Assembly (NCBI GenBank): GCA_973895155.1
Contig: OZ316896.1
Span: 6,314,166 to 6,378,165, forward strand
DNA length: 64,000 bases
Reading direction: 5' to 3'
Origin: Marsupella aquatica
Taxonomy: Eukaryota; Plantae; Marchantiophyta
Shown here: positions 488 through 42,512 of the stretch, one piece after another
Layout of the letters: every line of letters starts with the position of its first letter
Numbering within the stretch: the first letter of the stretch is position 1
Notes under the pieces: model-generated
What the model was told of the DNA's origin: nothing
The model's input: only the letters and a program-made list of their open reading frames with translations
Database searches by the model: none
Translations under genes and position numbers: made by a program

Positions 488-789
488 TGTGACGCCGATG
501 ACATGGTCCTTATTCTATAATCTAAGTAACTAGGTTGCTGTATGCAAGGAGTAGTTATTGATACCGCATAACAATTAGCAAGATGGCAAGAATAAGCGCA
601 ATCATGGCGTTAAGAGTAGGGAAATAAAAGCTATGTCGCGGGTGGTTGGCGACCATATCTCTTTCAATATGTCACCAAATCCGGATTTGTAAAGAGCATT
701 GGGAAGATCTGGTCAAGGCGAGTAAAATCGATATAAAACACTCGAGAAACGGAGGTGTATTAAGGAAGATACGGCCTGATTAGTGTGAT

Positions 790-1160
790 AGGTTAGCTTG
801 TGGCCGGAATTAGCGGGTTTAGCTTCAGTTTCGGGTTAACCCAAGCTCGGCCACGGCTTAGCTCAGGTAAGCACGGCTTCAGCTTATCTCAGGTAAGCAC
901 GGCTTCAACTTAGCTCAAGTAAGCACAGCTTCAGCTTAGGCTCAACCCAGGTTCGGATTAGATTGATCCCGGGTTAGACTTAACTCGGGTTAGCCTAAAC
1001 TCGGGCTCAGGTTAGCATAGGTAAGCTCGGGTTCGGGCTCAACTTAGGCTAGGTTAGCGGATAGCGGGTAGCGGCCTAACTCGAGACCACGGGTTAGCTC
1101 TACTCGGGTTAGATAGGATAGCCGAACTCGGGTTAGCTATGTAACTCGGGTTAGCGCAGC
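790..1160. repeat. Degenerate short tandem repeats (CTCGGGTTAG-like; ~26-bp GCACGGCTTCAGCTTAGCTCAGGTAA) inside the solo LTR
   Basis: Recurrent GGGTTAG, GCTTAG and AACTCGGG motifs seen directly. Confidence 0.7.
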
Positions 1161-2058
1161 AGTGAGTACCCCCTCTCGGTTGCGGGGGCATAACTCTCTG
1201 TGTATTTAACCAAATTGGCTATAATTGACCTCGTTGGAAAGAGGAGCTCAAGCCGCTTCCAACGCTGCTATCCACGCAGCAAATGGTTGAATTAAGAAAT
1301 CGGGAGAGGAGGTGCAAGCTCGCGAAAACCATGGAGGAGGGCCAAATCCGAAGTACATAGCCAATTCGAGACAGAAATAAAGTTGCGAGTTAGGGTTCAG
1401 TAGTTAGAGATAGTGGCGGCTCTATTAGGGCTGGGATGGGGCTCCAGCAGCATAGTATCCACCCATTTGGGCTCAGTATGAGAGTATATAGAGCAGCCTC
1501 CCGGTAGAGGCAAGGGGGGGGGGGACTTCAGTTGTGTGATCTCACTTAGACTGAGCAGCAGGGAGGAGCTCTGTGCAAGCAAGGCTGGACTTGGACGCTG
1601 CGTGTTGGGGAGAGCTTGGTTGTGCTATTACTTAGGGAGTAATCAGCCAAGCTTCACAGCTGCAACGGGTTGCTAGGTTTGCGAGCTGGATTGTGGCTCT
1701 TTCTAGTGGGCAGCACAACTGGGTTCTTTTCCCCCGATACAGAGCCTTGGTGATAGGTGATGTATTGGTGATTGTAAACTGTGGAGAGGATTTCAATGTG
1801 ATTTGTGGTGAGCACATTAGGGAGGCTGAGACACTGATTGAGGGGCAGCAGGAGGAGCATTTATAGTTCAGTCTGGCAAGGCTACGGGATCCATGGGGAG
1901 TCCCGGCCTTTGTCTGGTAGAGAGCACTAAGGGATTTATGGCCAGAGCTGAGCTTGCACGGCAAGCGTGAGGCCGGGCCTCATTGCAGTCTGGGATAGAG
2001 AGGAGCAATCTCATCAGTTATTAGTGACTGATATCAGTCACCGACATTTTTTTGGACA

Positions 2059-2807
2059 ATCTCGGAGACCTCTCCGAGATTGACCCCTTTTTTTTAATCA
2101 ATCTTGGAGGCATCTCCGAGATTGACGTCCTATTTTGTGTCAATCTCGGAGGCCTCTCCGAGATTGGTCACCAAAGTCTCCAACAATTGTTACAATCTCG
2201 GAGAGCCTCTCCGAGATGGGATCAACACTGGGTTTGAATCTTGGAGAGCCTCTCCGAGATTGCCAAAAACACTGGGTTTAAATCTCGGAGAGCGTCTCCG
2301 AGATGGGATCAACATCACTTGGAATCTCAGAGAGCGTCTCCGAGATGGGATCAACATCACTTGGAATGTCGGAGAGCCTCTCCGAGAACATCACTTGGAA
2401 TGTCGGAGAGCCTCTCCGAGAACATCACTTGGAATGTTGAAGAGCCTCTTCGAGATGGGATCAACATCACTTGGAATCTCGGAGAGCCTCTCCGAGATGG
2501 GATCAACGTCACTTGGAATCTCGGAGAGCCTCTCCGAGATGGGATCAACGTCACTTGGAATCTCGGAGAGCCTCTCCGAGATGGGATCAACATCACTTGG
2601 AATCTCGGAGAGCCTCTCCGAGATGGGATCAACTTCACTTGAAATCTCGGAGAGCCTCTCCGAGATGGAATCAACGTCACTTGGAATCTCGGAGAGCCTC
2701 TCCGAGATGGGATCAACACTGGGTTGGAATCTCGGAGAGCCTCTCCGAGATGGGATCAACCTCACTTGGAATCTCGGAGAGCCTCTCCGAGATGGGATCA
2801 ACATCAT
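2059..2807. repeat. Left subterminal array of the 22/23-bp palindrome, mostly 42-bp period
   Basis: Unit TTGGAATCTCGGAGAGCCTCTCCGAGATGGGATCAACATCAC; about 19 palindrome copies by eye. Confidence 0.95.
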
Positions 2808-2892
2808 TTGAAATCTTGAACATTTATTATTATGAAAGGATACAAAAGTGTATCGTTCTACCCACTAAACCCGAAACATCTTTGACATGCAT

Positions 2893-5800
2893 TCACCCTG
2901 AGCCTGCTACATTTGACACCAATTTACGAACCTCGCTAAGTGTCAAGATTGGCTGGTGGATCTCTTGGTCGCTCTCTAGATCTCGTCCACAAATATTTTT
3001 ATAGCACCAATACAAGTGTTTGCAAGGAAAGAAGTATCTTCCAGTATCTCTCATGATGAAATCTTGACAAGAGCAAGTTGGGAACACACATATCTGTACA
3101 CAATGGGCTGAATTACGGTCACGATGAGTGTTGGAAAGTACCACTCGTAAGCCAGTTGCATTCCCTTTTTCAATTCGAGTCATGGAAGTGAACCTCATCA
3201 ACTCGGATTTGGCACTCTCAATACGTTTCTTTGCATCTGCCGTCACAACCAATCTCCTTCGCCGTAAGCGACCATTGCGCCGGCTCAGCCTGACATCAGG
3301 CTTCAATGGATCCAACTGCTCAGGGTAACTATTCAAGTCCACAATTACATCGCCAGGACTCACCATTGAATCACCAGGAATGATGGTCTGTACCACATTC
3401 AATTCATTCACATGGAGAAAATCAACTTTATCTTGTGTTAGATAGGTTCCTCGAGCAACTAGGACCTTCTCCGGTAGTGGGGGCAGCCGCCCAGTAACAT
3501 ATGCCATGGAGGATTTCTGGCAACACTTGTTGTTTGGGCAAAACCAAAACTTTTGTGGAATGTTTGGATCCTTGTAACTGCTCCCAGCCAATAAGCACAA
3601 TCCTACCACACCCAACGTTGCATGACAAAACCCCACCTCCTTGATGTATAGACCGCATGCTGGACATTCTGTGCCTTTGAAGGCACCTCTACAAGCGGGA
3701 CCACTTCCATGGCGACTGATGCGAGACAAAAACAACATTCCTGGCATCACATTGCTCTCCTGAACTTGTCTTTGTTGGCCTCTATTATGCAAAGGTTCAG
3801 CAAACCGCATTGGTGGATAAACAGGGGGTGACCTTGGTATTGACCTTGTTGGGGTTGGAGGAGGTGGAACACGTGTTGCCCTTGTTGGGGGCGGAGGAGG
3901 CACTCGAGTTGACCTCCTTGGGGTTGATGGTGGAGGGACACGTGCTGACCTTGTCGCACGCTGTACTGGGCTCTCCAAAATCACCACATCTGATCCACCA
4001 GAGCCTGTAGGAGAGTCTGACGAGGTTGACAAGTCGACCACGTCAAGAATGGTACTTTTCAAGTTTGCATCTTGGCTTGAAATCCCCTTGAACTTCCGCT
4101 TTTTAGGTCGCGTTACTAGAATGACATCATCGCGATGGGAGTCTTCTACTGCAATAGCATCAGCTGGAACCTTGCCTCGCGCCGACATTCGTTGAGTTTC
4201 ATAGTCACCAGGAATTGGGTCCCCCGAAGCATATTCAACCATCTCCGGTTGAGTCATCACCGTATTTAACTTTGGGAAGAAACTCTTAACATTCCCAACC
4301 ATCCTGGCATCTCGGAGACGAAGTTCAAAGAGGCTTGGGCCGCGGCCCTTCCTCCCGTGGGTCGTGTAGTTCACAAAGACACCAATTTGATTTGATGCAC
4401 GGGTTGCATCCGTTATACAAGATTGCACTATCCCAATCTTTGTTGTGGAAGACCATCGGCCCATCACGGCATGCACGGATTCTGCCCCGCTATGGTTCAG
4501 CATCAATGTAGACTTAGTTCTGTCCATGTCCTACACAAAAATCAAAGAAAAGAGTATTACCAAAAAATGTACATGGGTCATCTTGTACATCTGCAACATG
4601 TCCAACGGGGTCTATCCTGGAGAGGCTCTCCAAGATGACCAGTGTTTCATCTCGGAGAGCCTCTCTAAGATGAACCGTGTTACAAAATAAAAGTTGGCTC
4701 TCTAACATGTCTTCCGAGTCGCCCATTTATTTCATCTGGGAGAGGCTCTCCGAGATGACCCACCTCTTCCATCTCGGAGAGCCTCTCCCAGATGACCCAC
4801 CTCTTTCATCTTGGAGAGCCTCTCCGAGATAACCCATATGTTCCATCTCGGAGAGCCTCTCCAAGATGACCCATATGTTCCATCTTGGAGAGCCTCTTCG
4901 AGATGACCCATATGTTTCATCTCGGAGAGCCTCTCCGAGATGACCCACGTCTTCCATCTCAGAGATTACCCATATGTTCCATCTCGAAGAGGCTCTCCGA
5001 GATAGAATATTACTAAGAATTCATAGACTTACCAGCCGAATAAAGTTTCCCCACTGGGAGAACCGCACAATCCACCACGAAAGCCATGTCTCCAGTGACT
5101 TGGTTTTTCCTTTGATTGCATTCCCATTTTTCCACCAATCCTTCATCTTCTCAAAAGTCCGAAATGCAAGAATCACATTGGCAGCGTCCCTCAATGAATC
5201 CAGAAGCTCCTTATGCTCAACTGCTTTGCCTGGAAGAATGCATTTCTTTGTCATCTTCTCCACTGATTGCGCCCAATGAAATGCATCAGATCGCTCCTTT
5301 TGAGAATTAACTCTTCCATCCCAGAATGTGTTTTGAACTGCATTCCACCCAACTGCAGCATTATCGGCAATGAACCCACAAAACGTAACATTGTCAAGCC
5401 CATTTGCCTTACACACTCGCTTCATGACCTTCCATGCAGTTTGTAGTGCAGCAGTATCTTCCGAAACTAGCTCGCATATAAAAATTGTGCAGAGACCTCT
5501 GTATAGGTGGTCGTATACATGAGCTGACATTGTGCACCATTGCTTCTCAGTCATCCGATGCATGACATCAAACATCACCCATGAGTCTTGTAGATCTCCA
5601 CCAGGCTGCATCCTTTGAATGAGATCGATTCCAGACCCTGGACCCTTTACAGTCATCTTGAAAATGTGTGGGCGCTCATTTGTATCTAGCTTCTGGTTTG
5701 GAAATAGAGTGCTCTGGACAAATGAAAACACTGTTTCTTTTTGAAGATCAAGGATGACTTGGAGGTCGGATGAGGCATGGGTATACTTGCGTATGCTCTG

Positions 5801-6943
5801 TATCATAGATCTTACAACTGATCGATCTGATAGGATCGCTAATGTTTCATTCAGATCCCGTGCTTCCTCAAATGTGACAATCCCAGCAACCTTGTCATCA
5901 AAAATATCCCTTAGAGCTTTAATTGTGTCACTCTTGATCACAGACGGCATTGCATGAGGATTCTTCTTCAATTTCTCCTCCATCAACTTATGTAAGAAAG
6001 CTTTTCGATCTTTCTTGAGAACAAATTTGGCCGGATGTGAGTGACTCCCAACATGCATAGCAACACGTGTCATGTGCTTGTAAATATAATGGTCATGAGA
6101 GGTCAGAGTTATGTAGAACATTTCGGCTGGACACTTGGCTATACACTTAGGAGGCCGATCACAAAAGGCGCAAATCACACTCTCGGCTGGAACTAGTCGC
6201 CCAACAAGAAATGGAACCTCATTTCTCCCACCCCTATCTCGCTGCCATTCTGTGCAATTGCGCTCATTCTTACTTGTAAAAGCCGGACAATCTGAATGTG
6301 GACATTGCAAAGAGCCCAGGTATCTCACATTCCCAATCTTATACTTGAAGCCTCCCTTGTTCAGGTTGGGTCCAATTTGGGCCCCTGTCTCGATGAGCTT
6401 GCTCCACAAGTAGCAGTCATTTCTCCGCTCCATACCCAAGAAGAAGGCACCCTTTGTGTACATTCCTGTGAATGGGGGGAGCTCAAAAATGCAATCCCCA
6501 TCATACCATTCCGGCAGAGTCATGACTCGTTGTGGATAATGCACTCTAAGAATGGAATGGGCAGCCTTTACACATCGCGAAGTGCCTTTCCCTTTCAGCA
6601 TTGCAGCAACAACACTTTCAAGAAATTCGGCTTGCTCTACCTCTGCCGGCCACTCTGAAATCTCTCCAGTTTGAGATTGCAAACCAACTTCAGTAAGAGG
6701 AACAGAGTACACCCTCTGCTGAAGGACGTATGAAACTTCACTTTTCAGATGCCATATCCTTTCCTCTCCACTCTCCTCTGAGTCTGCCTCAATCAATGGT
6801 AAGACATCGTCGGCCTCAAAGAGTGCCCACTCCCCAATCTCAACATCGAACCGACGAGCTAATTCGTTGTCTGGTGTATGCCGAACAACACCATCAGTCG
6901 CTAGCACAACAACGTCTCCATTGTCTGGAAACGTGATCCTCAC
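2893..6943 (-). CDS. MULE-family DDE transposase with N-terminal WRKY/GCM-like Zn finger and C-terminal SWIM domain; exons >=6943-5033 and 4530-2893 (~1180 aa, true start uncertain)
   Basis: Motifs WVMFDVMHR (D1), FIADNAA (D2), ERSDAFHWAQS (CxxH position), GAESVHA (E), CSC-x15-CKH (SWIM), and an N-terminal CxxxxC...CxxC...C...HxH. Phase-0 intron 5032-4531 (CTG|GTAAGT ... TTGTGTAG|GAC) joins ORFs 5021-6943 and 2893-4527. The frame continues upstream past a TGA at 6977-6979. Confidence 0.85.
4612..5003. repeat. Palindrome array in the transposase intron, 37-bp period
   Basis: Unit CCATCTCGGAGAGCCTCTCCGAGATGACCCATATGTT; palindrome starts at 4771, 4808, 4845; about 10 copies. Confidence 0.9.
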
Positions 6944-7154
6944 ACGAATATTGTTGAATATGTCAAGATTGTTTTGTCAGAGTACCTTATCGCCCAGACT
7001 GAGCGTAAAAATTGTTACAATATTCTTCCCTCGTTGAATATGTAAGAATCCTTCTTGACAACGTACCCTTGTGAGCGTGAAAACTGTTATTGACAGTGAC
7101 TAAGTTTATTGGACCAACATCCAAGAACCTTTGACAGCAAGTTTAGGGTGTTCA

Positions 7155-8055
7155 TTAGGCTCTCTCAGATGCCATCTGGAAGCCTCGACCCATGTTAGAG
7201 AGGCTCTCCGAGATTAGATCTTGCACCGGATCTCACCAAGTTTCATCTTGGAGAGGCTCTCCAACATGCCATCTTGCGCAGGTATGAGGCCTCGACCCAT
7301 CTTGGAGAGGCTCTCCGAGATTAGATCTTGCACCGGATCTCACCAAGTTTCATCTTGGAGAGGCTCTCCGACATGCCATCTTGCGCAGGTATGAGGCCTC
7401 GACCCATCTTGGAGAGGCTCTCCAAGATTAGATCTTGCACCGGATCTCACCAAGTTTCATCTTGGAGAGGCTCTCCGACATGCCATCTTGCGTAGGTATG
7501 AGGCCTCGACCCATCTTGGAGAGGCTCTCCGAGATTAGATCTTGCACCGGATCTCACCAAGTTTCATCTTGGAGAGGCTCTCCGACATGCCATCTTGCGC
7601 AGGTATGAGGCCTCGACCCATCTTGGAGAGGCTCTCCAAGATTAGATCTTGCACCGGATCTCACCAAGTTTCATCTTGGAGAGGCTCTCCGACATGCCAT
7701 CTTGCGTAGGTATGAGGCCTCGACCCATCTTGGAGAGGCTCTCCGAGATTAGATCTTGCACCGGATCTCACCAAGTTTCATCTTGGAGAGGCTCTCCGAG
7801 ATGCCATCTTGTGGAGGTATGTAGCCTTGACCCATGTTGGAGAGGCTCTCCGAGATACCATCTTGCGCAGGTATGAAGGGTTTAGGGATGTTGGAGAGGC
7901 TCTCCGAGATGCCATCTTTAGGTGTGTAGCAAGGATTAGGCCCAATATTTGTCAGAGAGGCTCTCCAAAGTTATCACCAACCTGATATGTCATCTCGGAG
8001 AGCCTCTCCGAGGTCTGATCTTGTGTAATATTCAATTTTGGAGAGGCTCTGACAT
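7155..8055. repeat. Palindrome array upstream of the transposase, 107-bp higher-order repeat (53+54 bp)
   Basis: Alternating spacers TAGATCTTGCACCGGATCTCACCAAGTTTC and GCCATCTTGCGCAGGTATGAGGCCTCGACCC; central base mostly G; units at 7301, 7354, 7408. Confidence 0.9.
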
Positions 8056-8067
8056 GGGTCCTCAATG

Positions 8068-8680
8068 ACATGTCATCTCGGAGAGCCTCTCCGACTTACG
8101 TCCCCACTTTACATGTCATCTCGGAGAGCCTCTCCGACTTACGTCCCCACTTTACATGTCAACTCGGAGAGCCTCTCCGACTTAGTCCCCACTTTACATG
8201 TCATCTCGGAGAGCCTCTCCGACTTACGTCCCCACTTTACATGTCAACTCGGAGAGCCTCTCCGACTTATGTCCCCACTTTACATGTCATCTCGAAGAGC
8301 CTCTCCGACTTACGTCCCCACTTTACATGTCATCTCGGAGAGCCTCTCCGACTTACGTCCCCACTTTACATGTCATCTCGGAGAGCCTCTCCGACTTACG
8401 TCCCCACTTTACATGTCAACTCGGAGAGCCTCTCCCACTTACGTCCCTACTTTACATGTCATCTCGGAGAGCCTCTCCGACTTACGTCCCCACTTTACAT
8501 GTCAACTCGGAGAGCCTCTCCGACTTACGTCCCCACTTTACATGTCATCTCGGAGAGGCTCTCCGACTTACGTCCCTACTTTACATGTCATCTCGGAGAG
8601 CCTCTTCGACTTAAGTCCCCACTTTACATGTCAGAGTGGAGAGCTTATCTGACATGGGGGCGTGACATATCTCGGAGACA
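8068..8680. repeat. Palindrome array in the divergent intergenic region, 43-bp period
   Basis: Unit ACATGTCATCTCGGAGAGCCTCTCCGACTTACGTCCCCACTTT; about 13 copies. Confidence 0.95.
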
Positions 8681-9261
8681 ATCTGGAACTTGAGACTGGC
8701 TTGACATGTCGTGCAAGTACTGAATATTTTTTGGAATTAAATCCAGTCATTCAATGATCGTACTCATTAATACCAAGGAATGATAGGAAATCTTATCTGG
8801 TCTGGAATCAATCGTACCAAGGACATTATGGCGTGAAGGGGTAGTAATAATGAAAGCATCTGTACAGGTACTTCAGTGTTGCGACTCTGACATGAGTCAA
8901 ATCTAGGCATTCATCATTATCAGAGTATGACAACATATAAGCCAATAAACTGCTAACATGTCAACTTCCTCCCGTGGCCCCTACCACTTGTAATCAATGA
9001 GTGGTCCCATAGATCTCCTGTTGCTTGGATGGGACTCAACCTGCGTGACGGCGATAGTGAAGTCAGTTGTGATGCCCCTAGATCTTCCGTTGCCTAATAA
9101 TGATGATGACTACTTTGGTGAGTCCCAGCCGTCTCTCGCCTTTCCTCATTTGAAAGGCGAGCAATTGAGGCCAAGCGAGTGCGAGTGCGGATGCAATTTA
9201 CCTCATATTTCTTGGAGAGCGTAAGTTGCTTTGTGATCTTTCCCTCTCCGCGCTCTGTATG

Positions 9262-9692
9262 CTATGAGTTGTGTGCTGTGAGCTGTGGTGGTGCGAGTGC
9301 TGGAAGTAGTGCGATTGTGAGTGCAGTGCGATTGAGTGCGATTGTGAGTGCGAGTAGTTGTGCGGTGCGATTGAGTGCTATGCAAGTGGTGCGATTGAGC
9401 TTGCTGTGAGTGAGTTGTGGTGGTGCGAGTGCTGGAAGCAGTGCAATTGAGTGCGGTGAGTTGTGGCGGTCGAGTGCGAGTGTTGTGCGAGCGGTGTGAT
9501 TGAGTGTTGTGCCACTGCCAGTGATTGAGCTTGCTGTGACTAAGCTGTGGCGGTGCAAGTGCTGGAAGCGGTGCGATTGAGTGCGGTGAGCTGTGGCGGT
9601 GCAAGTGCGAGTGCTGTGCGAGCGGTGCGATTGAGCTTGTTGCGACTGAGCTGTGGGTGGTGCAAGTGTTGTGCAAGTTGTGCTCGTGCAAT
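9262..9692. repeat. GT-rich degenerate minisatellite (GTGCGATTGAGT / GTGCGAGT / GTGGCGGT), possibly within a 5' leader intron (9221-9696)
   Basis: Low-complexity repeats flanked by GTAAGT at 9221 and TTCAG ending at 9696, just upstream of the ATG at 9716. Confidence 0.7.
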
Positions 9693-10460
9693 TCAGTAGT
9701 TGGTGAGATTTGAAAATGACAGGGAAGAGGAAGCAACCCACTCCCTCTCCTTCATCGTCTGGTCGGCAGACCAGATCAAAGACAACAGAGAGCACCGCCA
9801 GTGGTCGGGAAACTCACACAGTGAAGAAGCTGGAGCCGAAGGTTCTGAACTTTGAAAATGTGTCTACTGAACGTCTGAACAAAGGTGCATTCGAAGGGAT
9901 TGTTGGGGAGTACTTGCTTTCATTTGGAGCTGAACCAAGTGGGAAGCCCAGAGAGCCACCTCGGATTCCACTATGTCGTTTGATGACAATGGAGGCAGTT
10001 TGGACTCTCCAACAGAGCTCCATTCTGAAGATGAAGAAGGACTTCGTGAAGAATGGGTATGTGGACAAGTTTTTGGAATTCCACATATCAGAGACCAATG
10101 CGCATAACGCCACCCACTCCATGTCTGAATTTTCCGCGGATTGGGACCCTCTATGGGAACAAGCTAACGCAAAATTTGAGATGGAGTGTGATGAGTACGA
10201 GGAGTTTCATGTTTTGAAGGGTAAGATGTTTTGGGTGTTTGATGGAAATCATCGCCTGAATGCATGTAGACAAGTGGCTGAAGAGTATCCTGACAAGCAG
10301 AAGTACCACCCTTGCATGAGATTCTCTCTTCTACAGCCTGGAAAACAAGGATTCAGGAAGATTGAGCAGGCAATGCACGGCCTCAACGCGTAAGTTTCCG
10401 CCCCCTTGGTTTTTGGTTGTTCTTGCATTTGTTGTTTTTTTGCACCCACATAGGCAATCC

Positions 10461-10666
10461 TATCTCGGAGAGGCTCTCCGAGATAGATACATACACACAT
10501 ACAATGTTTGGCTCTCAAAATGCTATCTCAGAGAGGCTCTCCGAGATAAACCTTCCCTTCTCGGAGAGCCTCTCCGAGATATCAATGCCTTCTTGGAGAG
10601 CGATGCCTTCTCAGAGAGCCTCTCCGAGATGTCCATGCCTTCTCGGAGAGCATCTCCAAGAGAGAT
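10461..10666. repeat. Palindrome cluster in intron 1 of the cargo gene
   Basis: About 6 copies of ATCTCGGAGAG(C/G)CTCTCCGAGAT or variants within intron 10390-10720. Confidence 0.9.
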
Positions 10667-13065
10667 GTAATTTTCAGGTATGAAGACTTTGACGCCAACA
10701 TTTGTCGCTTCTTTATGCAGGATAAGCGCAAACGTTGTGCAGACATCTTGGTTGACCGATGCAGACAGGGTGAAGAAGCTGTTGATGACACCTTTGGAGG
10801 AGTATCAGACATTGCTTCATCCGGATGGTTATGCTAGATTCTTAGCAGCAAGAAGCCATGGGCATGGAAAGACATGGTATAGCAAGTGCATGACAAAGGA
10901 TGCTGCTGTGTACATCATGTCGTGGAATAATATTGAAGACGGGAGGATTCGTCTTGCGAAGGAGATGGCAGCCGATGCTGCAATTGGCCATGCCTGGAGT
11001 TTGGATAAGTTCCAAAAGGAAACCGCACTCATGACGAGTGAAGCTTGTAGGTCTTGGGAGGGCAAAATGCAGAAGTTTGCTCAGATTGTCAATCTAGCAA
11101 ATGGAGAGGAGTTTCTAGAGATTGCCGAGGAGCTGCACCAGTTGCAGAGTTAACAAAAAGATCGGCCACAAGTGCAAGTGGGGTTGGATCGAGTTAAATT
11201 GTTTGCAAGTGCGGTGATGCCTGCTGAGTGTCGAAACAAGTTACTCCGCGTTCATTTCTCAACCGCGGAGGAGAAGAAGCGACACCACCATCCAGATGTA
11301 TATGGTGATTCAGCAGTGAGAGCTTGGTTGCTAGTGTGGTCAATGTGGTGTTACATTGCCCATGTTGGCAGTTTGATAATGTCAGAGTTTGCCGAGAGTG
11401 CATATGATTCTGGTGAGTGGCAGAACTTCAATGGAAGCAAAGACGAGTTTGTTGAGTTTCACAACAAGATGTACAAGCAATTTGTACAGACTCGGTCCTA
11501 TGAGGAGGGCAAGAAGATGTGGAATCCAGCAAAGCAAAGCAAAGATGTGTGGAGGAATCGTGCAAAGAGGTGTGTGGTCAGATATTTACTTCATCAGGAG
11601 AGCATTGGAGCCTCTACTTTCAAAGTGTTACCAAGTGCTCTGACTGCATGGATGACGGAGAAAGGCCCGCTGTCAATGTATCCAACAGATGGGCTGAAGC
11701 CATCAGCAAGAGTCTTTTCAGACTGGGAGAGACAAAATTGTCCATGGTTCATGGAGTTCAATGATTGGAATGAGTTCATTACGCCCGAAGAGAAGGAAGC
11801 TGCCAACCTCCTAAAGGAGGGGAAACTACCAGACAACCTTTTTGCACCTTCAAAGTTGGGAGATCTTGAGCTGTCGACAAAGGCTGCATTGGACTTGGAG
11901 GCCATTTTGCCTCTTGGAGAGCCAGAGTATGATGGGAAGAAGGTTCGGGGGAAGAAAGAAAAGGAATCAGAAGACACCACCTCAGAACAAGGCACTCCTG
12001 GTAAGGTTTACACCCTAGCTTGCATTGTACATCTGACATATGTTTGAGAGCCTCTCCGAGATAGTATCATTGTAAAATGATAACTAAACTCCTTACTTTG
12101 TTCTGCAGAAAAAAGTAAGGAAAAGTTTGGAACCCCAGGGTCTACCTCAAGCAAACGTCGTCCGATGGATGAGAAGATGGAGCCAAGAAAGACCGGGGAC
12201 AATGGAGAGGAGGATGAGAAAGTGGTGAGTGGGGACAATGGAGAGGAGGATGAGAAAGCGGCAAGTGGGGACAATGGAGAGGAGGATGGGATGGCCACCG
12301 GGGACAATGCAGAGGGCCATGAGGAGGAGGAGGAGCCTGACCTTTCAACCCCAAGCGGGACCCCGAGTGGGACCCCAAGCAAACCACAAATCTCTGGTAA
12401 GCCAACCAGTCGGCCAAAGAAGAAAGCCGACAAGAGGATAGACGAACCCACAAAGAAGCCAGTTTCAACAGAAGCCCCAGAAATTCCGGAGGATGATCTT
12501 TGCGAAATTCTTGGAGTACCTCGGCCCTCTCATGCTATTACATCTGCCCTGCGATTTTGCCATGCAAAAGAGCATATGACCTTACTAGAGTGTTCTTCTT
12601 GGCTGAAGGACAAATATCAGCCAACCACGGGAAAGTTGCCTCTCCCTCCATTCATGAGGGAATTCCGGGACTGGTGTAAGAAATTGAAGTTGGCTGGCTT
12701 GCGAAAACAAGGTTGGATAGTTGATGGTGTACCTAAGGGCCATGGTTGTGATATGATCTTTGTTCAGCTAGGGACAGATTATCGCATAGCGCAGGCTGAA
12801 AATAATGTTCCGGTGTGGAATAGATTTCGGCTCAGTGACCTAGAAGTGGCGACGACATTGGCAGACTCTCTACTCACAAACGACGGTTTCCTGTGCAGTG
12901 GTTCATTTGCCCACATAGGCTCAATCTTTGAGTACCTTCACATTGACTGGGCTGAGAAGTTGGATCACATTGACTCATTCACCATTTGGAATGACACACC
13001 TTGCTACATGGCGTCAAGCAAAAAAGTTGTAAGTTCACTTCAATTTTGGCATTTCAATAGAAGTC

Positions 13066-13682
13066 ATCTCGGAGAGGCTCTCCGAGATAGTTGAAAAATG
13101 TGTCCGCAATTACGATGTCGAACACCCTCTCCCTTATGGGTAACATTGATCTCGGAGAGGCTCTCTGAGATAGGTAGGATCCATCTCGGAGAGCCTCTCT
13201 GAGATAGGTAGCATGGATCTCAGAGAGCCTCTCTGAGATAGGTAGGATCCATCTTGGAGAGCCTCTCTGAGATAGATAGCATGGATCTCGGAGAGCCTCT
13301 CTGAGTTAGGTAGCATGGATCTCGGAGAGCCTCTCTGAGATAGGTAGGATCCATCTTGGAGAGCCTCTCTGAGATAGGTAGCATGGATCTCGGAGAGCCT
13401 CTCTGAGATAGGTAGGATCCATCGCGGAGAGCCTCTATGAGATAGGTAGCATGGATCTAGGAGAGCCTCTCTGAGATAGGTAGGATCTCGGAGAGCCTAT
13501 CTGAGATAGGTAGCATGGATCTCAGAGAGCCTCTCTAAGATAGGTAGGATCCATCTTGGAGAGCCTCTCTGAGATAGGTAGCATGGATCTCGGAGAGCCT
13601 CTCTGAGATAGGTAGGATCCATCTCGGAGAGCCTCTCTGAGATAGATAGCATGGATCTCGGAGAGCCTCTCTGAGATAGGTA
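13066..13682. repeat. Palindrome array in intron 3 of the cargo gene, 34-bp period with alternating spacers
   Basis: Unit ATCTCGGAGAGCCTCTCTGAGAT plus AGGTAGGATCC or AGGTAGCATGG; about 17 copies; right arm reads CTG instead of CCG in almost all. Confidence 0.95.
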
Positions 13683-14499
13683 GGATTTTTAGGGTTTAGA
13701 GAGGTAGGACCAATGTCGGATTAGTTTAGCAATTAGTGTTGCTAACAAGTGCGAATCTATTTTGCATGATGTGACAGGCTCAATATCTGCATTTGGATAT
13801 ATTCGCCATGAAGGGTACAGAGGTGACCCTCCCAAAGATACATATGAAGCCAATTACTGGTGATTTGTGCCCAGGAAAGAGCAATGCTCTATCCAATTTT
13901 ACAAAGGAAGATGATGCAGTGAGAGACGAATTGGCCGGAACCTTATCGCCTGCAACCTTGCAATGCATCATAGAGCACATCACCAGTCCCGGCGATATCA
14001 TATTTTCTTGGAATGTCCACTTTGGTGCTATCTACAAAGCTACCAATAATTGTGGGCAACTAGTATTTGGGATGGAAGCGCATGACTACTTTGGTGAGTC
14101 AGCAGCTTCGGTGGTGTCAAAACTCCTTTCAACACAGCAGGGCAATCAGACCAAGGCGGAGGGCGAGGAGAGTAAGAAGGAGGAGGCCAAGGAGACTAAG
14201 AAGCCTGAAGGGCGGAAGAAGCTTGTCCTTGAGTCTGATTCAGAGGAGGATGCCGCAGAAGGCAAGGGTGGGAATGCTCAGGATTGTGAGTAAACGTTGA
14301 ATCCAAGAACCCATTTGTTGTTAGTTTGCAATTTACATTGTGCCATGGTGAGGATAAATAAAAATGTGAAGTTCCACATTATTATGGTATTACCTTAAAC
14401 TGTCTACTTAACCAATAGGCAGTTCACTACAGGAACATCGAGTCCGAACAATGGCACACATCGGACAAGGACAAAGTCCATGAAGCATGGGAGGAAGCA

Positions 14500-15531
14500 T
14501 TGAAAACTTTCTCTCCAGAAAGATTTTGCCTTCCAACTTACGCAGAAGGGATTGTTGATTCACGCCCCTTCAAACGGCTCAAGGGTGTAGCTGAGAAGTA
14601 CACAAAGAGGCGAAAATCAAGATTTGTAGATGATAGAGCAGTAGAGGTAGACTACAATGAAAGTGAGAGTGTCAGCAGTGATAGTGATAAGATAGCTCAC
14701 CCTTCTTTTGTGACCTATAGCTCAGATGAAGATGATGCCTAATGCCATGCTGTTCAATCCTATGCAGCACGTGGTGGGAATACCCAGATACCTGGGTTAT
14801 TTGCTGAAGTAGTCTGCTCTCAAGACTTTTCCGACATAGTATCCACATGTCTATCCACAGAGCTCCCAGACGAGGAAGTACTATTCAACTTTGTAGATTA
14901 CAAGTTGACTAGGGCGTCAATGAGATGCTTGTCTGAAGGAAGAACAGGAGCTCAATGGCTACATTCAGATATCATCGATGCATATTTGGCCTTGTTGCAG
15001 TTTAGGGGGAGATCAAGAGGCTATCCAAAGTGTGCATTTTTCATCACAGCATTCTACATGTTGCTCTCAACGCCCGTATACTGTTTTGCCAATGTTGCTC
15101 GATGGACCAAAACAGAAAACATATTTGATTATGACAGGATATTGGTCCCTATCCACCAGGCAAACAGGGAGCATTGGGTGTTGGCAGTGATTGATTTAAC
15201 TGGAAAAGAGGTGTTGTTCCTAGATTCACTTTGGGAGAAATCAGGAAACTTTTGGGAGGCTCGAAATGAGTATCTCATGTATACTCTAACAAGGTATGTC
15301 GAGGATGAAGCAAGTCAAAGAGGCATGCCCTCACCAGATGCAAACAACTGGCCTAGAACTTTAGTGTCAGGCCTTCCATCACAAGAAGATAGTGTAAATT
15401 GTGGGGTATTTATCCTTAACTATGCAGAGCGCATAAGTCGAGATGCTCCTATGGATTTTGATGGCAGCTAGGTAGGAAACTTGCGAAAGAAGATTATTTA
15501 TGACCTGTGCACATATCAGATAACAGAATAA
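14500..15531 (+). pseudogene. Ulp1/SENP-family (peptidase C48) SUMO protease carried by the MULE; 5' end uncertain
   Basis: WLHSDIIDAYL, ILVPIHQANREHWVLAVID, FLDSL and QEDSVNCGVF give the H-D-C triad plus oxyanion Q. ORFs at 14500 and 14905 share a frame across TAA 14740-14742, and the frame continues past TAG 15469-15471 as VGNLRKKIIYDL to TAA at 15531. Confidence 0.9.
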
Positions 15532-15654
15532 AGTAGTGGCCAACAGGGGTTAGCTTTAGAGAAGGTAGCAATGATGAAGTGTTGCTGTGTACACATTATA
15601 ATATATATGAAAAGTGAATGTGATGTGTATCACTTGCAAATTTTTTGTATTTGT

Positions 15655-16037
15655 ATGTCGGAGAGGCTCTTTGAGATGGTCTTAGAAATGGAATGGGAAA
15701 GTCAATGATGGTTTGCAAAGTGACTTGGTATCTCGGAGAGGCTCTCCGAGATGGTCAACAAAAATACTTGGTATCTCGGAGAGGCTCTCCGAGATGGCAA
15801 TGGAGTGACTTGGTATGTCGGAGAGGCTCTCTGACATGGTGAGCAAACAAACTACCATGTCTCCAACATACTCCTGGAAGTGTGTTGGGATCTCGGAGAG
15901 CCTCTCCAAGATTGCCAAAAACAATTGTTGCCATCTCAGAGAGGTCTCCGAGATTGCCAAAAAAATGGTAGGGATCTCGGAGAGCTCTCCGAGATTGCCA
16001 AAAAAAACTGTCGCCATCTCGGAGAGGTCTCCGAGAT
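15655..16037. repeat. Right subterminal palindrome array
   Basis: About 9 copies; outermost ATCTCGGAGAGGTCTCCGAGAT (16016-16037) is the exact reverse complement of the outermost left copy (2059-2080). Confidence 0.9.
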
Positions 16038-17016
16038 TAGAGAAAAAAAAGGGGGGTGACTAATATCAGTGACTGATAACTGATGGATTACCTCCCCACT
16101 CTGGGATAGATCGTTGTTAGGCCTGGTATCAGCTTTGAAGTCGAGTCAACTGTGCATGCGTAACTTGACGTTCTGAATTGGAGGTGTGAGATCTGCATGT
16201 GCCCCCAAGAATGAAGTGCAGTGAAGGAGGTTGAGTTCAGGATTGAGTTTGCAAGGCAAGTACGGGATTGGTTTGAGTCCAATCTGCCGTTGCAATCTGG
16301 AGTGAGCCGGGCTCAGGTTCAGGATTGAGCTTGCATGGCAAGCATGGGGCTTGCAGGGCAAGCACGTCACAATCTGGAGGAGACAGCCTTCGGCCCTAGT
16401 GTTTGGATCAAGTGTTCTCAGTGAACTATTGTGCACATCTTTGAATCTAATTGATTTTTCCTCTCAAGCCTCATTTCTCTCATGGATGTGTGTGTGTGTG
16501 AGGCAATCTGAGTGTATGATGGGACTAGCAGCGCCACTGAGAGGTGTACATGGTGCATTGAAGCGGGCTGGGTGAGGACTGTCATAGCTCTGATTGCTGA
16601 GAGTGGAATGGCAGAGTGGTGGGGCAATGGCTTAGAAGTCCCTAAGCCGGGAATCAGTCAGGAGTCACTGGTTTATGGGTACATTCCGGCGGTGGAATAG
16701 AAACATACCTATGACAGTAAGCATACATATAGACCTATGCGCACCGTAGCGCTAGGCCCTGTGGGTACGGGCCCGATATGAAGACCCCTTCTCACCAGAA
16801 CTATCATGAGCGCAGATCTGATCCCCAACCTTGGTTCTTTGGGATTGAGCTTGGGTGATGTGTGATAGAGTCTTGCTATGATAGTCTGGTGTTAAGGGCA
16901 TAAATTTGTGTTTCCCGACCTTCACAACATCCCTTCGTGATCCTCAAGTACAAGGAGATGGTTTTGGCACCCATAGTGACATTTTTGGTGTTAAGACCCA
17001 TGTCAATCGCGTGACA

Positions 17017-18826: not shown

Positions 18827-19869
18827 TGTTGTGGATAGTTTGATGTATGCAATGACATGCACTACACCTGACATTGCCCACGCAATTAGCATTTTGAGCA
18901 GATTTATGGCAAATCCTGGTAAGCTTCATTGGGAAGTAGGGAAGTGGGTTTTACGGTATCTGAAATGTACCTTAGATTGTGGAATCTTATTTGACGGTAA
19001 AGCATACTCTACATTAGAGTTGGAAGGTTTTGTAGATTCAGATTATGATGGTAACTTTAATAACAGAAAGTCTACTACAGGCTATGTGTTTAATATGTTG
19101 GGTGGAGGTTGTATCAGCTGGAAGTTGACAACTCAATCCTGTGTTGCATTGTCTACTACTGAGGCTGAGTACATGGCTGTCTGTGAGGCAACCAAGGAGC
19201 TGATCTGGCTATGAAGATTGGTGAGTGATCTGGGTCTTTCACTTGAAAGACCGGTGCTTCTATATGTCAGTCAAAGTGCTTTGCATCTGGCTAAGAACCC
19301 TGTGTTCCATGTCTAGACAAAGCACATTGATATTTGTTATCACTTCATCCGTGAGGTGATTGAGATGAAGCAGATGTCTCTGGAGAAAGCGGCTTTAGAG
19401 GAGAATGCCGCAGACATGCTTACCAAAGTTTTACCTACCAGTAGCTTTAGTCATTGTGTGGATATTACTAATGTTAGGGCCAAACCGGAGACTATGTAGA
19501 TATGTTACTTAGTTACATATTGTATATCACCTGACTCATTGTGTGAACTAGAGTCAAGGTGGAGATTGTTAGGAATTGACTCGAGTTCCCGACTTAGTTA
19601 GTTGGCCTTACTAAGGTTAGTTTACCCTGGATTACATTAGGATAAGATCCACTTAGTTTAGGCCCACACATCTTGGCCCCCTTGGGGGGTATAGGTTGGA
19701 GGGAGAGCATTCTCTCCTCATTCTTCACATGTACTCTCATTTGCTACGGAGCCCCCGACAGAGCCTTAAGGAGTTTCTCCACTCTGGGTGTCTTGTCGGT
19801 GTAGCGTCTGATTGAGTCTCTCTCATGTTTCCACATTGATGTCTAGTCTAGAGCCGACGGTTTCTTACA
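18827..19869 (+). mobile_element. Ty1/copia 3' remnant (RT end, RNase H, PPT, probable 3' LTR 19567-19869)
   Basis: SLMYAMTCTTPDI, GFVDSDYDG...RKSTTGYVF, VALSTTEAEYMA, KHIDICYHFIRE with stops; purine tract AAGGTGGAGAT followed by TGTTAGG at 19567. Confidence 0.85.
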
Positions 19870-23662: not shown

Positions 23663-24366
23663 TAGTAGCGGGGCCAATTTGGATACTTGAAAACCTACTG
23701 TACTTGTTCAGCTCAGAAATGTCTGTGCTGATCTCCATGTTTGGTATGGCTACTACCGCCCCTGTCAATTTTCTATGGAGCTCCAAAATTGAGGAAATCA
23801 CAATTTGAAATCTCTGTGCAATCATTCAAAGCATTCATGAAGCTTCCAATACTTTACGGGCGTGTTCAAAAATTTGGAGGGGGAAGAGGTCCCGATTTTG
23901 GAGTTGTCTACCTCGGGTTAACTGCAGTTAGCCGGAAACCCAGCCATTTGCAAACAGCGCACCGCTACCCCACTCATATTTGACTACCCGAGAAGATAAC
24001 AGCCTGGTTATACCCTGTTTAGGTGCGCCCGAGTGCATCGCGGACTGCCCGCAAGGCCGAAAAGAAATCTATATTTGACACGCTTTGTCCTTCTCAGCCC
24101 CGTGCGGGAACAACTTCCCGAACGGCGAGTTGGGACTTCCTTCGAAAGTTCGACTGCCACCACCCTCTTCCCGTTGAAGTGCAGTACCAGCCCCTTCCTC
24201 GAGAGGAGAGTAAAAGTCTGGCAATTGGGACTCCTTTGGATAACATAGCGAGAAGATCCTTTCAGGATTCAACCCCCTGATTGGGAGATTGCGGCAAACG
24301 CGACGTACCTTGATCGAGATCAACAACCTGGATATATTTTCCTTCGCAGAGAGGAACGAAGTAGTG

Positions 24367-27300
24367 ATGTTCTGTTTGAAAGTGCATATGCCAGATCAGT
24401 TCACGGAAGTAGAATTGATGCCTCGGTCCATACGCCCAGACACGATCACCGATGGAGCAGCGGAAGGTCGAGAGGCGAAGCAACCCAGGGATGTCGGGGA
24501 CACTAAAACCGTGTGTTTTTCTTCAGGAAATCCTAGGGTGGAGTCTACGCGAGGGGTTGTGCACCTGTTCCGGAATACATCCGCAGACCCAGGCTCCGCA
24601 GACGAACTGCCGGTAAATTCAAATGCTTATTTTGCAGGATTGGGTGGCATGTTGGCTCCGCGAAGAGTGTCTTTTAATGGGATTGTGAAGTCAGCTTCAT
24701 TCGTGCCATTCCTGAACAACGAGATGGCAAATCTAGTTATAGCTTCGCCTACTTGGGCATCACTTTCCCTTCCTGAAGCTTTATTGATTTCTTGTCTTAT
24801 GCTCCCTCTTCAATTCTCCATATATACCTGTGTGCCCTTTCTCTCCTCCGCTCCACGACGGAATATGTGGTCTCTGTAAATCATTTGTACTCTCCACCGT
24901 CAAGTCATCTACTGCTCTCCAGACTCTTGGGTGATTGCCAGTTTAGATGGTGCAGAATGACACTCGATCACATCGGCCTTGTAAGCGGCACGGAGAACCA
25001 CGTTCTATTTTGGTGTAGTTTCCATGAGTGGTTTTCACCTGTTGTCGATTGCAATTCAATGTTCGCCTCAGTCATTATCGCACTTTGGTCAGAATTCGGG
25101 TTTGTTTATATCATTAGTCCTGCAGTGAAGATCAGGGATCTTGTGTGGCAATCTACCGTTTTGGCTGCTTAACCTGCTTTAATAGTATCAACCGTTCGTA
25201 AACAGTGTTTATTGTCGGTCTCATGTCTCAATTGAGTCTTTGTGCGTTTCAAATTGATTAATTCTTGCGTTCTAGACCTAAGTTTTCCGATAGATTCATT
25301 CGCTTCCTTCATTTCATTGGTTTTATCCGTCCAAGGAAATATTTCAGAATTGGTATTATTAATAATGCTCCCATAGCATCTAAGGTTGTCCAGCAGAAGC
25401 CAGACGGAATTACACAGGCAACAAAGTATTAATGTACTGGAAAAATGTACTAGAAAAATTGTAATAGTATGATTAAACAGATTTAAATGTTTATTGAGAA
25501 TCCATTGAGTTGAGAAAATTAACCCGGGCATTGCTGATGAGTGTAAAGTATGGTCAATTAGTGGCGTCATAGAAAGATTGATCATGACCTTGTTTCATCA
25601 TGTTTTAACGTGAGCTCCAGATTGGGGTGTATGGTAGTGCTATGAATGTAAACAGCTGCATGGTCTGTTATTTTGTCCCAAGACACTCCCTGTTAACGAG
25701 GAGAGAATACGGTGACAGTTCTCGGTAAGTTTATGTGATAGTTTGGCTTTTTCATATTGTTTTTGAACAAAAAAGGCTATATCTCGCAGGCTGGCCGCAG
25801 TGAACACTTGTGCGTACTTGCGGTACCAAATCATTTGACGGGTGCAGATTTTTGCCAGTTTACGGGCTCGTTTCTTCATGACATTGAAGAGATGCGGATT
25901 GTCAGGTGTGTAACAGTCGGTCAAGTTTCATCTCTATTGAAAGCTAGAGGGAGAGGAATCCAGTACTAGTCGGGAATTTTTTTTTAAGTGCTTTGCTGGA
26001 TCTCGCTGTTTCTGTCCTCAGGAATGACGGTGCAATGGATCGCTACAGTGTCCTCATGAAGTTTGATAAACAGAGTTCTGCTGATGAGTTTTATCGACAT
26101 TATAATGGGAAGCCGTTCTCATCATTTGAGGTTAGCTTTTAGTGATGATTTGTAAACGAAAGGTTGATACCATTAGCATTAACAGCAAAATTATTTTCTA
26201 GCCGTATTCCTTATGCAGTCGTTGCAGTACAGAACAGGGGAGCAGTGGTCTGGAGTGAATTGGCCCAGTTAAGGACTGCTTGTTGTAACTTTCACCACTT
26301 GCTAAGATTGCTGTCTGGCTGAAGGAAAGGATTGGATGTTCTGTCCGTGACCTCTCACTGATCTTTATACGTTTGAAACATACATGAATATCCTTCTCCT
26401 GATGCTGGGCTGATTCGTTTATCTTCCTCTCTCCTTTTGGATTGCAGGCAGAGGTGTGTCATGTATTGTTTACTGCGGATGTTCAGTATACCGATTCTGG
26501 AGAAGAAGCATCATTGCCCCCTGCAGGGTTAACTGAACTTCCAACCTGTCCAGTTTGTCTAGGTGGGTTGTCTGAGAGTGACGTCACTTTGCGTGGTGTT
26601 GATGTTCATTTCAATGATTTAGGTCAGGAAGCATTACTTCCCTCTCAAGGATTGACAGAAAATATTGCAATGCCTCAGATATTTTGATAGGATGAAACCT
26701 TGCCTTTAAGCTCTTCTATTACTGATTTGACTTTCATTTGTGTCAATTGTTGATTTGATGCAGAAAGACTTGACCAGAACATCAGTGGAATTTTGACGAC
26801 TGTGTGCAACCACTCTTTTCATAGTTCTTGCATATCCAAATGGACGGACTCATCTTGTCCTGTAATGTTTACTCCCTCTTGAAGTTAATGTCGTTTCTTT
26901 TTGTGTGTGTGTTTTCTTTTTGGGCCGGAGTAGGTTGGGGAGGTTCTTAATGCTGATAAAACGAGCCCGATTTCTTAATTGCAAAATTTAGTTGATCACT
27001 CGAGGACTTTCCTTGTTGGGTTAGGCGGACCCATGAATTCAGTTCTTCCTTCATTCGTCAGAATTGTCGGTCAGAGGTATATCTTTTATAGTTAGGTCTG
27101 AGCATTGTTGATGGAAGTTATTTGCTTCAGGATCCGTGGTAAATGGCTAGTTATCATTTGCGACTTTGCAGGTGTGTCGATACTGTCAGCAACAATCAGA
27201 GAAATCTACTTGCTCAATCTGTGATTCTCCCGAGAATTTGTGGATCTGTGTGATCTGTGGCTTTGTTGGTTGTGGAAGGTCAGAGTTGTAATTCGAGTTG

Positions 27301-40979: not shown

Positions 40980-42100
40980 ATTGTCAAGTGCCTTTCCCAT
41001 TCTGAGTCTTCAATCGGCAATCGGGATCACTTATATCGATACATTCTGGGAATTATGAGTTCACATGAATGCAAAGGTCGACACGATTGGGAGCACAAAA
41101 CTCCCCAACCTCTTCATATTGAATATAGAAAAGTCCACTGATCTGGAATCCTAATCCAAGCAGGAAATCTAACTTTGAAGGGGTCAAAGAAGCCCCTCGT
41201 TGAACATTCAGCACCTTGGGTGGAGGGGGAAGCTGAGCAAGAGCTCTTTGACCTTGGCTCTTATGCCAGATGTTGCTTGGGCAGAGCAACTGACAATGTG
41301 GAGACAATAATTAATTGCAGCCCGTGAATGGCAACCCCAATGACACCACCGTGTGTGGACTTGCATCCAATTTCCTTAATGAGATTTGGACATTCACCTC
41401 CTCCAAAAGCACTTTGGTCCACTGATCCGTTGCACACACATCTAGCGCCTTTCCCACTCCGCCTCAGATGCCACATGCCGTAAGAACATTGGCCTCTCAG
41501 ATTAAAGGGATCCTTTGGGGAGCATCCCAAAGATCATCCCCATCACCTTGGGAAGGTTGTGTGCTTGCCCTAGCAATCTCATCTGATATTTGACTTGCGT
41601 CATCACCATTAGTGTCCAAAATATGGATCATTTCAAGAGAGTCAACTCAAAGAGGGGTGGTGCAAGGGGCAACATTATATTCTCAGAAGTTGACTTTTGG
41701 GGGCTCTAAGCATGGAAGCCATCCTTGTGCTCACTTCCAGGAACATTGATGTAGTGGCAAAATTCAGCATAGAGGTTTCTCCTTTACAAACCTGAAGGGG
41801 AAGAGGCTGTGCGTAAAACTTTGTCATGCATGACGGTGGGAGTCATTTTCATGGATCGTGCCTGGCGCGCTTCCTTTCCATTTACTTCATGTAGTTTGGA
41901 TATCACTATGTAACGGTGCTGTCCGATAGAATTCATATTTTGCAGACGACTCCAATAGAAGATTAGTTGCCTTCTTGTAAGCATCCATGGACCCCATTGC
42001 GTCTGCATTCCTATATGCAAGCTTAAAAATGGTAGGCCCCTGGCCTCTCTAACATCCTTTAGTATAAGTACTAAATGCAAAAATGTGACCTACTGCACAA
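40980..42100 (-). pseudogene. Old, diverged relic of a transposase related to exon 2 of the MULE transposase
   Basis: Collinear peptide matches: RGQGPTIFKL vs KGRGPSLFEL; AFGGGECPNLIKEIG vs AFKGTECPACGLYIKEVG; LPPPPKVLNVQRGASLTPSKLDFL vs LPPLPEKVLVARGTYLTQDKVDFL; DPDCRLKTQNGK vs KPDVRLSRRNGR. Confidence 0.65.
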
Positions 42101-42512
42101 TTCTGGTCAACCTCATAGGCTTCAAGCAATCCTATTCATTTCTTAATCTGACATGATCTCATGGATGCATTGATTCCTCTCCAGTACAGTTTGCTCCTTT
42201 GCTATTGGGTCTGGTCAGGGAAAAAACAATATTAGAGATGGAACTCTCAGGCTAGCAAGGTCACTAGCCAAAATTACTCATATTCTGAGAAAGTAAAAGA
42301 ATGTACTTACAACTTGGAGAAAGTTTCCCCATGATTGTCTACATCTCACGACCCGCCAAGAAATCCACCCCTGAAGTGCATGGAGTTTTCCAGGGTAGCT
42401 TTTTCCTCTCTTCTACCATCGATGTATCTGGTCAACAATTCTATATGCCCGGACATATGTTGGTGTGATCCTCAGTCTCTCCCACATTTCAAAGTGCTCT
42501 TGGTGACAACAT

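Follow-up and report, generated by a model that had tools for sequence, protein, structure and literature searches.

We find that a 23-bp palindrome, ATCTCGGAGAG-S-CTCTCCGAGAT, is confined, within the 64-kb stretch of contig OZ316896.1 analyzed here (the window), to a single Mutator-like DNA transposon: all 86 of its sites lie inside this 14,102-bp element, at positions 1998-16099, where the core has been tandemly amplified, separately each time, with whatever flanked it. We propose, with a probability of roughly 0.5, that the element follows a VANDAL-like design made from different parts, in which the palindrome would be the binding site of an element-encoded protein, most likely the product of a gene that we term gene B. 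A first-pass annotation, which read the arrays as binding sites for a dimeric protein, had overlooked both that every site sits inside one transposon and that this transposon encodes a candidate binder.

Palindromic sites and the element that carries them

A motif scan of the whole window with up to three mismatches returned 77 sites, every one in 2195-15912, a count reached by none of 100 shuffles (mean 0.00). A relaxed scan gave 80 23-bp sites (up to four mismatches) together with six 22-bp sites near the element ends, spanning 2059-16037, and the remaining 50 kb of the window contained no copy of the palindrome, the sole relaxed-scan match there (47480) having six mismatches. None of the 86 sites is exonic, and coding sequence makes up 8,073 of the 14,102 bp (57%) of the element. 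Instead, sites are present in seven of the eight non-coding compartments, including all four coding introns: 18 in the left subterminus, nine in the intron of gene A, 28 in the intergenic region, five, one and 17 in the successive introns of gene B, and eight in the right subterminus, with none in the 137-bp gap that precedes the Ulp1 frame. Hence 60 sites are internal and 26 subterminal, and even the 108-bp second intron of gene B has its lone site (12040). The features of the element are as follows, with strand given where one applies.

1989-1997, + strand: left target-site duplication (TSD) TCTGGGATA; 9 bp likeliest, 11 letters fit either side
1998-16099: Mutator-like DNA transposon, delimited by TSD, end alignment, pre-insertion contigs and other copies with differing flanks
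1998-2042, + strand: left terminal inverted repeat (TIR), short and degenerate, 35/45 identical to the right end; 18-bp palindrome at 2024-2041
2059-2793: left subterminal sites, three 22-bp forms followed by array A (period 42, 15 cores)
2893-4530, - strand: gene A exon 2, with a putative catalytic E and, at the C-terminus, a SWIM-type C-x-C..C-x-H, both assigned by inspection
4531-5032, - strand: gene A intron (GT-AG), nine sites including array B (period 37)
5033-6976, - strand: gene A exon 1; Cys/His-rich region, D470, D538 and DxxH at 564-567, without an identified start codon
7192-7910: array C with 14 cores, a 53+54 bp dimer located between the two divergent genes
7992-8612: array D (period 43, 13 cores), preceded by a single site at 7992
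9281-9635: GAGTGCG-rich 130-bp repeat, unrelated to the palindrome, directly upstream of gene B; donor-like site near 9221
9716-10389, + strand: gene B exon 1, predicted ParB/sulfiredoxin-fold domain (DGNHR), from homologs, model and Atlas
10390-10720, + strand: gene B intron 1, five sites; many homolog open reading frames (ORFs) end at the same residue
10721-12000, + strand: gene B exon 2, region of undefined fold, 29-36% identical to Riccia proteins and interrupted by an in-frame stop (11151-11153)
12001-12108, + strand: gene B intron 2, 108 bp, one site
12109-13028, + strand: gene B exon 3, first methyltransferase-like half, preceded by an acidic linker; QLGT at the motif IV position
13029-13777, + strand: gene B intron 3, with a site at 13066 and the dimeric array F (16 cores, period 34)
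13778-14293, + strand: gene B exon 4, second methyltransferase-like half with a degenerate S-adenosylmethionine-binding motif
14431-15531, + strand: Ulp1/C48 protease frame with in-frame stops at 14740 and 15469; separate gene or alternative exon
15655-16037: right subterminal sites, of which five have the 23-bp and three the 22-bp form
16055-16099, - strand: right TIR; second palindrome at 16056-16073, two mismatches
16100-16108, + strand: right TSD TCTGGGATA

The boundaries of the element were also examined in sequencing runs matched to the window (six listed, from four studies, three of them with at least half of its words), of which the best-matching may be the window's own source; none among the runs listed was an RNA run. 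Contigs that join 1988 to 16100 and omit 14,111 bp, and so represent the pre-insertion sequence, were found in three of four runs; as the flank is a high-copy long terminal repeat (LTR), these are probably sister LTR copies, which still show the pre-insertion sequence. Right ends entering differing flanks were found in two of four runs among those listed (two and four contigs; agreement 0.73 and 0.56), and the element thus exists as dispersed copies at different sites. These other copies depart from the window sequence after 16097, ending in TC before their differing flanks, and because this TC end matches the left end a 9-bp duplication is favored, which is also the most parsimonious length, although 10-11 bp fits as well. 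The TIRs extend over only about 45 bp and the subterminal palindromes reach to about 170 bp. Each TIR contains a second, different 18-bp palindrome (perfect only at the left) that occurs in the two TIRs only. This TIR-only palindrome is a natural candidate for the transposase site.

Tandem Repeats Finder returned periods of 42, 37, 107 (53+54), 43 and 34, which are all of those that the first-pass annotation had read from the letters, and its two dimeric higher-order repeats were recovered as arrays C (53+54, 107 bp) and F (34+34), with two spacers alternating in array F apart from a few slips. The perfect 11-bp arms it described were likewise confirmed, with the qualification that perfect palindromes number only 14 among the 80 23-bp sites. 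Its inventory of five arrays stands, but it missed the lone site at 12040 and the cluster at 10462-10662. Spacers diverge by 0-13% inside single arrays, whereas between the five named arrays none of 19 spacer pairs was related at p<0.05 relative to shuffles (lowest 0.069), and the core consensuses compared between arrays are identical at 19-23 of 23 positions. When all 36 spacer pairs were tested, three were related: the two dimers' own halves (p=0.018 and 0.004) and the left subterminal array with a sixth, right subterminal array at 15730-15912 (p=0.0025, without correction for the 36 tests). The data support the suggestion that a constant core was amplified on separate occasions, and a single ancestral unit behind all arrays was rejected. 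The outcome that the first-pass annotation had named as contrary to its reading, spacers of different arrays aligning to one ancestral unit around a core no better conserved, was not observed. The three sites closest to each element end (2059-2164 and 15933-16037) are the 22-bp forms, in which the center is one base shorter; the additional base is present in some other copies of the element. Open reading frames that run across arrays, such as 8065-8693, were dismissed as repeat artefacts.

The least variable part of the palindrome is the inner GAGAG-S-CTCTC, which varies less than the spacers: half-site positions 8, 9, 10 and 11 carry the consensus base in 160, 159, 160 and 157 of 160 half-sites, and positions 3, 5 and 6 are the most variable. 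The comparison of core with spacer that the first-pass annotation had called for was made across element copies by placing their contigs on 15700-16125, where 33 of 40 listed variant places fall in 15730-16037. Variants affect 21 of 150 spacer positions, 8 of 42 CG/CCG core positions, 2 of 56 in the outer core, 2 of 10 in the center and 0 of 50 in the inner core. The non-methylable core as a whole (2/106) is hence more conserved than the spacers (p=0.0006), a difference into which misplaced contigs on similar units can enter by inflating the spacer count, and slower change holds for this part of the core but not significantly for the core in its entirety. Within arrays, too, the inner core varies less than the spacers (2/56 versus 20/124, p=0.025). 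Among 43 distinct cores, 44 of 87 changes are of the deamination type at CG/CCG, as expected of methylated DNA; the observed/expected CpG ratio of the element is 0.56, that of the remaining window sequence 0.59.

The palindrome also appears to be old in this element family. Peptides that agree with the translated palindrome at six of seven residues are present in two of the four distant transposase ORFs: P0002 has two of them, and P0001 has one, which lies beyond the end of the exon. None of 300 shuffles reproduced these counts, and 155 gene-B homologs contain no such match. This peptide evidence suggests that the motif has persisted at 57-64% transposase identity. In metagenome contigs the palindrome pattern was found at 28 distinct loci, 27 with one exact site, with no arrays and no match to an element protein, and these were treated as chance or unrelated; viral contigs gave no matches. 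One GC-rich metagenome contig (L002:2100-2751) has two near-perfect palindromes 629 bp apart, with no element link found.

Genes of the element and its surroundings

Gene A is the transposase gene. Its two exons are spliced into an open frame of 1193 codons in which D470, D538, DxxH, E665 and the SWIM-type motif occur in order. In the Atlas its best matches are Mutator-like elements (MULEs; the first at 0.94, MULE in 61% of members, 162 shared features), and all ten of the best family matches fall in one family or clan. A Pfam scan gave nothing at E up to 0.1, which indicates a divergent MULE member, and its relatives are 57-64% identical. No longer transposase homologs were found, which is weak evidence, and none of 147 pattern matches to gene A relatives in metagenome contigs was confirmed. 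By these sequence criteria the element is a divergent member of the Mutator/MULE superfamily.

Gene B, with four exons and three GT-AG introns, yields a spliced frame of 1129 codons that is interrupted by a single stop. For exon 1, 178 homologs were found, and six of the ten gene-B homologs looked up could be named, five from Riccia sorocarpa and one from Adiantum, all of them hypothetical proteins. The 1207-residue Riccia protein P0157 aligns collinearly to exons 1, 2 and 4, and exon 4 matches Riccia proteins with E-values of 2e-8 to 7e-8; no longer homologs of exon 3 were found, which is weak evidence. Riccia sorocarpa has many dispersed gene-B homologs (P0021-P0032 and P0155-P0159).

The N-terminus of gene B is predicted to adopt a ParB/sulfiredoxin fold. 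The exon 1 model (predicted local distance difference test score, pLDDT, 93.5) matches KorB, PadC, SerK, sulfiredoxin and SbnI, the best being KorB (Z 7.2, root-mean-square deviation 2.8, 92 aligned), and the top 9 of 17 VIA rows of the structure search are ParB, Srx, SerK, SbnI or Atu1540 chains, which belong to one superfamily. Foldseek was less decisive (best E 0.03, none below 0.001). The exon 1 motif residues G, N, H and R are conserved in 58, 61, 59 and 55 of 62 homologs, a pattern that does not distinguish CTP from ATP use. The best Atlas matches of this region (9710-10390) are fungal DUF3723 clusters (47%, 92% of members), and DUF3723 is named in the available text of many papers on Starships; giant elements of eukaryotes may thus share a recurring accessory domain of ParB-like type.

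The C-terminus is predicted to have a degenerate beta-class N6/N4 DNA-methyltransferase-like fold. In three of five Riccia homologs this domain matches Pfam N6_N4_Mtase with E-values of 9e-6 to 5e-5, below the cut-off, and the low-confidence model of the Riccia homolog P0158 gave 49 Foldseek matches below 0.001, including N4CMT, PvuII, CcrM and M1.HpyAVI (E 1.2e-8 to the latter), with a permuted fold in which motif IV precedes motif I. Since the predicted fold is that of a beta-class DNA amino-methyltransferase, the automatic name trimethylguanosine synthase of some Riccia homologs is likely wrong. The catalytic (D/S/N)PP(Y/F) is absent, the window copy having QLGT and six aligned homologs D-x-P-x; forms of motif IV in the gene-B family include DLPT, DMPT, DMPS, DVPF and DFPI. 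Judged by its sequence, the methyltransferase domain is probably inactive in this copy. There is no Pfam match to the VANC domains (DUF1985/DUF287) in five gene-B exon ORFs or 22 homologs, and the two terminal domains, which were modeled, have other predicted folds. Sequence searches of the PDB gave nothing significant.

The frame downstream of gene B matches Pfam Peptidase_C48 at E 2.1e-24 (87 bits, cut-off 20.7). A Ulp1-type accessory gene, VANB, is a component of VANDAL elements, although the literature checked did not confirm this. The GAGTGCG-rich repeat upstream of gene B could possibly be a second motif array in an intron of the 5' untranslated region.

The transposon is nested in a solo LTR at 488-17016 (TG..CA ends, 5-bp duplication GCCGC) that is itself nested in a gypsy-type element, of which a second copy lies at about 32000-40610 with chromodomain, integrase and reverse transcriptase. 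This chromovirus and the named homologs mark the host as a plant, and the Riccia and Adiantum relatives suggest that it is a non-seed plant. Decayed transposase-like remnants at 41020-41290 (E 6e-4) and 42305-42499 (E 1e-9) have no palindrome sites nearby. Elsewhere in the window are a copia-type remnant near 18830-19500, recognized by inspection, and, at about 24000-29000, a multi-exon host gene with a zf-UBP domain, which resembles BRAP2/BRIZ.

A candidate binder and competing explanations

The reading we favor would account for the arrays as follows. Single sites would have been seeded in every non-coding compartment, slippage or unequal exchange would then have raised their number locally, and selection would have retained the inner GAGAG-S-CTCTC while methylated CG/CCG positions decayed. 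A binder with two-fold symmetry, likely the gene B product, would fill the dense sites, and the bound sites would keep the element transcribable, countering host methylation as VANC does for VANDAL, while the transposase would act through the separate palindrome confined to the TIRs.

Several observations weigh against this proposal. Gene B has a premature stop in this copy, no DNA-binding domain was identified in it, with exon 2 lacking a usable model, and the box-I Arg conserved in 51 of 62 homologs is replaced here by Trp. The Z scores for the ParB fold are all below 8, so that ParB is not separable from sulfiredoxin or SerK, and the model of the methyltransferase domain is that of a Riccia homolog, with a pLDDT of 46. 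As for the sites, their absence from exons would be expected of any tandem array, arrays C, D and F, three of the five named, have amplified an imperfect core with one or two fixed changes, and the motif seems to be long-lived, judging from the peptides, while VANC targets turn over fast. The conservation of the whole core including CG/CCG, at 12/158 versus 21/150 in the spacers, is not significant (p=0.096), nor is that of all non-CG core positions within arrays (p=0.074).

The strongest competing explanation, although an unlikely one, is that the palindrome is a transposase-binding site, with subterminal copies aiding synapsis or excision and internal copies allowing self-activation. The subterminal sites begin right inside the TIRs, and the motif accompanies distant transposases, as the translated-palindrome peptides indicate. 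The available text on Muta1 describes transposase binding and excision that rise with subterminal repeat number (PMC5499845), and that on AtMu1 a transposase that suffices by itself to activate and hypomethylate its copies (bioRxiv 10.64898/2026.08.24.746577). However, the same AtMu1 source places the binding peaks at TIRs, most sites here are internal and up to about 7 kb from an end, and the TIRs hold a palindrome of their own that is found nowhere else.

A more elaborate scheme, which we consider doubtful, is a ParB/parS-like transposon system in which the ParB-fold protein would load at the arrays and spread as a nucleotide-gated clamp, while the amino-methyltransferase fold would write or read a self mark of N4-methylcytosine or N6-methyladenine, shielding the element from silencing. 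If true, non-seed plants would have arrived independently at anti-silencing of the VANC type, with parts of prokaryotic origin.

Somewhat less probable still is that the arrays are neutral by-products, a hairpin-prone palindrome triggering local duplications that persist where they are harmless. As DNA, the perfect core has a folding energy of -9.3 kcal/mol, unit number changes among copies, damaged cores have been amplified, and the conservation test on the whole core given above is in keeping with this idea. Yet the amplified variants fold more weakly (-3.4 to -6.1 kcal/mol), and compensatory double changes among the 43 distinct cores (9 versus 7.2 expected) show no clear excess; on these two grounds a strict hairpin requirement was rejected, and the near-expected number of compensatory changes agrees better with a site recognized in double-stranded DNA than with a hairpin. 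In addition, the perfect 18-bp TIR palindrome has not been amplified, the inner core is kept even by lone sites in unique sequence, and slippage leaves the arrival of the core in every intron unexplained. Least likely is that the sites recruit a host factor, such as a GAGA-motif binder of the BPC/BBR type, to set chromatin state or reproductive-cell expression: the least variable part is exactly GAGAG-S-CTCTC and sites flank both promoters and fill the introns, but the inverted two-arm form with fixed spacing is retained throughout, the 8-bp half-site is absent from the window outside the palindromes, and the element itself encodes candidate binders.

Comparison with known systems

The closest parallels to the arrangement we propose are the VANDAL21 and VANDAL6 elements of Arabidopsis. 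As described in the accessible parts of PMC5735166, these are likewise MULEs with accessory genes in which one motif is multiplied in tandem in introns, intergenic and terminal regions, and the units within an array evolve together. VANC21 binds the motifs arrayed in these regions of VANDAL21 (PMC5735166) and removes methylation (PMC5735166, PMC10398659). By analogy, the element described here may work like VANDAL/VANC, but gene B is not a VANC. VANC motifs, in those accounts, are 8-9 bp, in one orientation and quickly replaced, in contrast to a 23-bp palindrome that is seemingly long-lived, and VANC is described as dicot-specific and MAIN-related (PMC13547354), unlike the predicted ParB/sulfiredoxin and methyltransferase folds of gene B.

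Muta1 and the foldback MULEs, as presented in the available text of PMC5225508 and PMC5499845, resemble the element in their 8-9 bp TSD, in a DDE transposase with a CxxH-type motif, and in having a terminal palindrome with separate subterminal repeats. Muta1, however, has a single gene within 3.2 kb, and its repeats are treated there as part of the TIR, whereas most sites here are internal. The searched literature, with supplements and most subscription journals outside its range, describes no MULE with a gene-B-type gene or such arrays.

For gene B the likenesses lie elsewhere. Bacterial ParB, KorB and Noc with their parS-type palindromes share the predicted ParB/sulfiredoxin fold beside palindromic sites, but the element is not a ParABS system: no ParA ATPase was found among the eight element ORFs scanned with Pfam, no helix-turn-helix was identified, and gene B is spliced and belongs to a cut-and-paste element of a eukaryote. 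According to the accessible text of PMC4738411, some eukaryotes have ParB-linked amino-methyltransferases that came from phages; these differ from gene B in being algal or chytrid and in their other domain make-up; the same source gives DIRS1 as a case of element-borne inactive methyltransferase domains. The C-terminus of gene B shares its predicted fold class with MpDN4MT1 of Marchantia and the bdelloid N4CMT, and differs from MpDN4MT1 by motif description (TSPPY in the available text of bioRxiv 10.1101/2021.02.12.428880, versus D-x-P-x in the gene-B family and QLGT here).

Motif-array anti-silencing is known from dicot VANDAL elements, where VANC reportedly descends from a chromatin factor of plants. 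The same cis layout is found here in what is likely a non-seed-plant MULE, together with an unrelated accessory protein of predicted bacterial-type ParB and amino-methyltransferase folds. Riccia and a fern also seem to have a multi-copy family of ParB-methyltransferases that has gone unannotated. Two testable questions are opened: did anti-silencing by transposons evolve twice, and by what means could a factor bound at its sites act over a whole element, for which ParB-type spreading would be a concrete mechanism? A candidate site, candidate binders and, as a control, a palindrome restricted to the TIRs are defined for such tests in an element that shares its layout with VANDAL and its predicted accessory folds with bacterial ParB and amino-methyltransferases.

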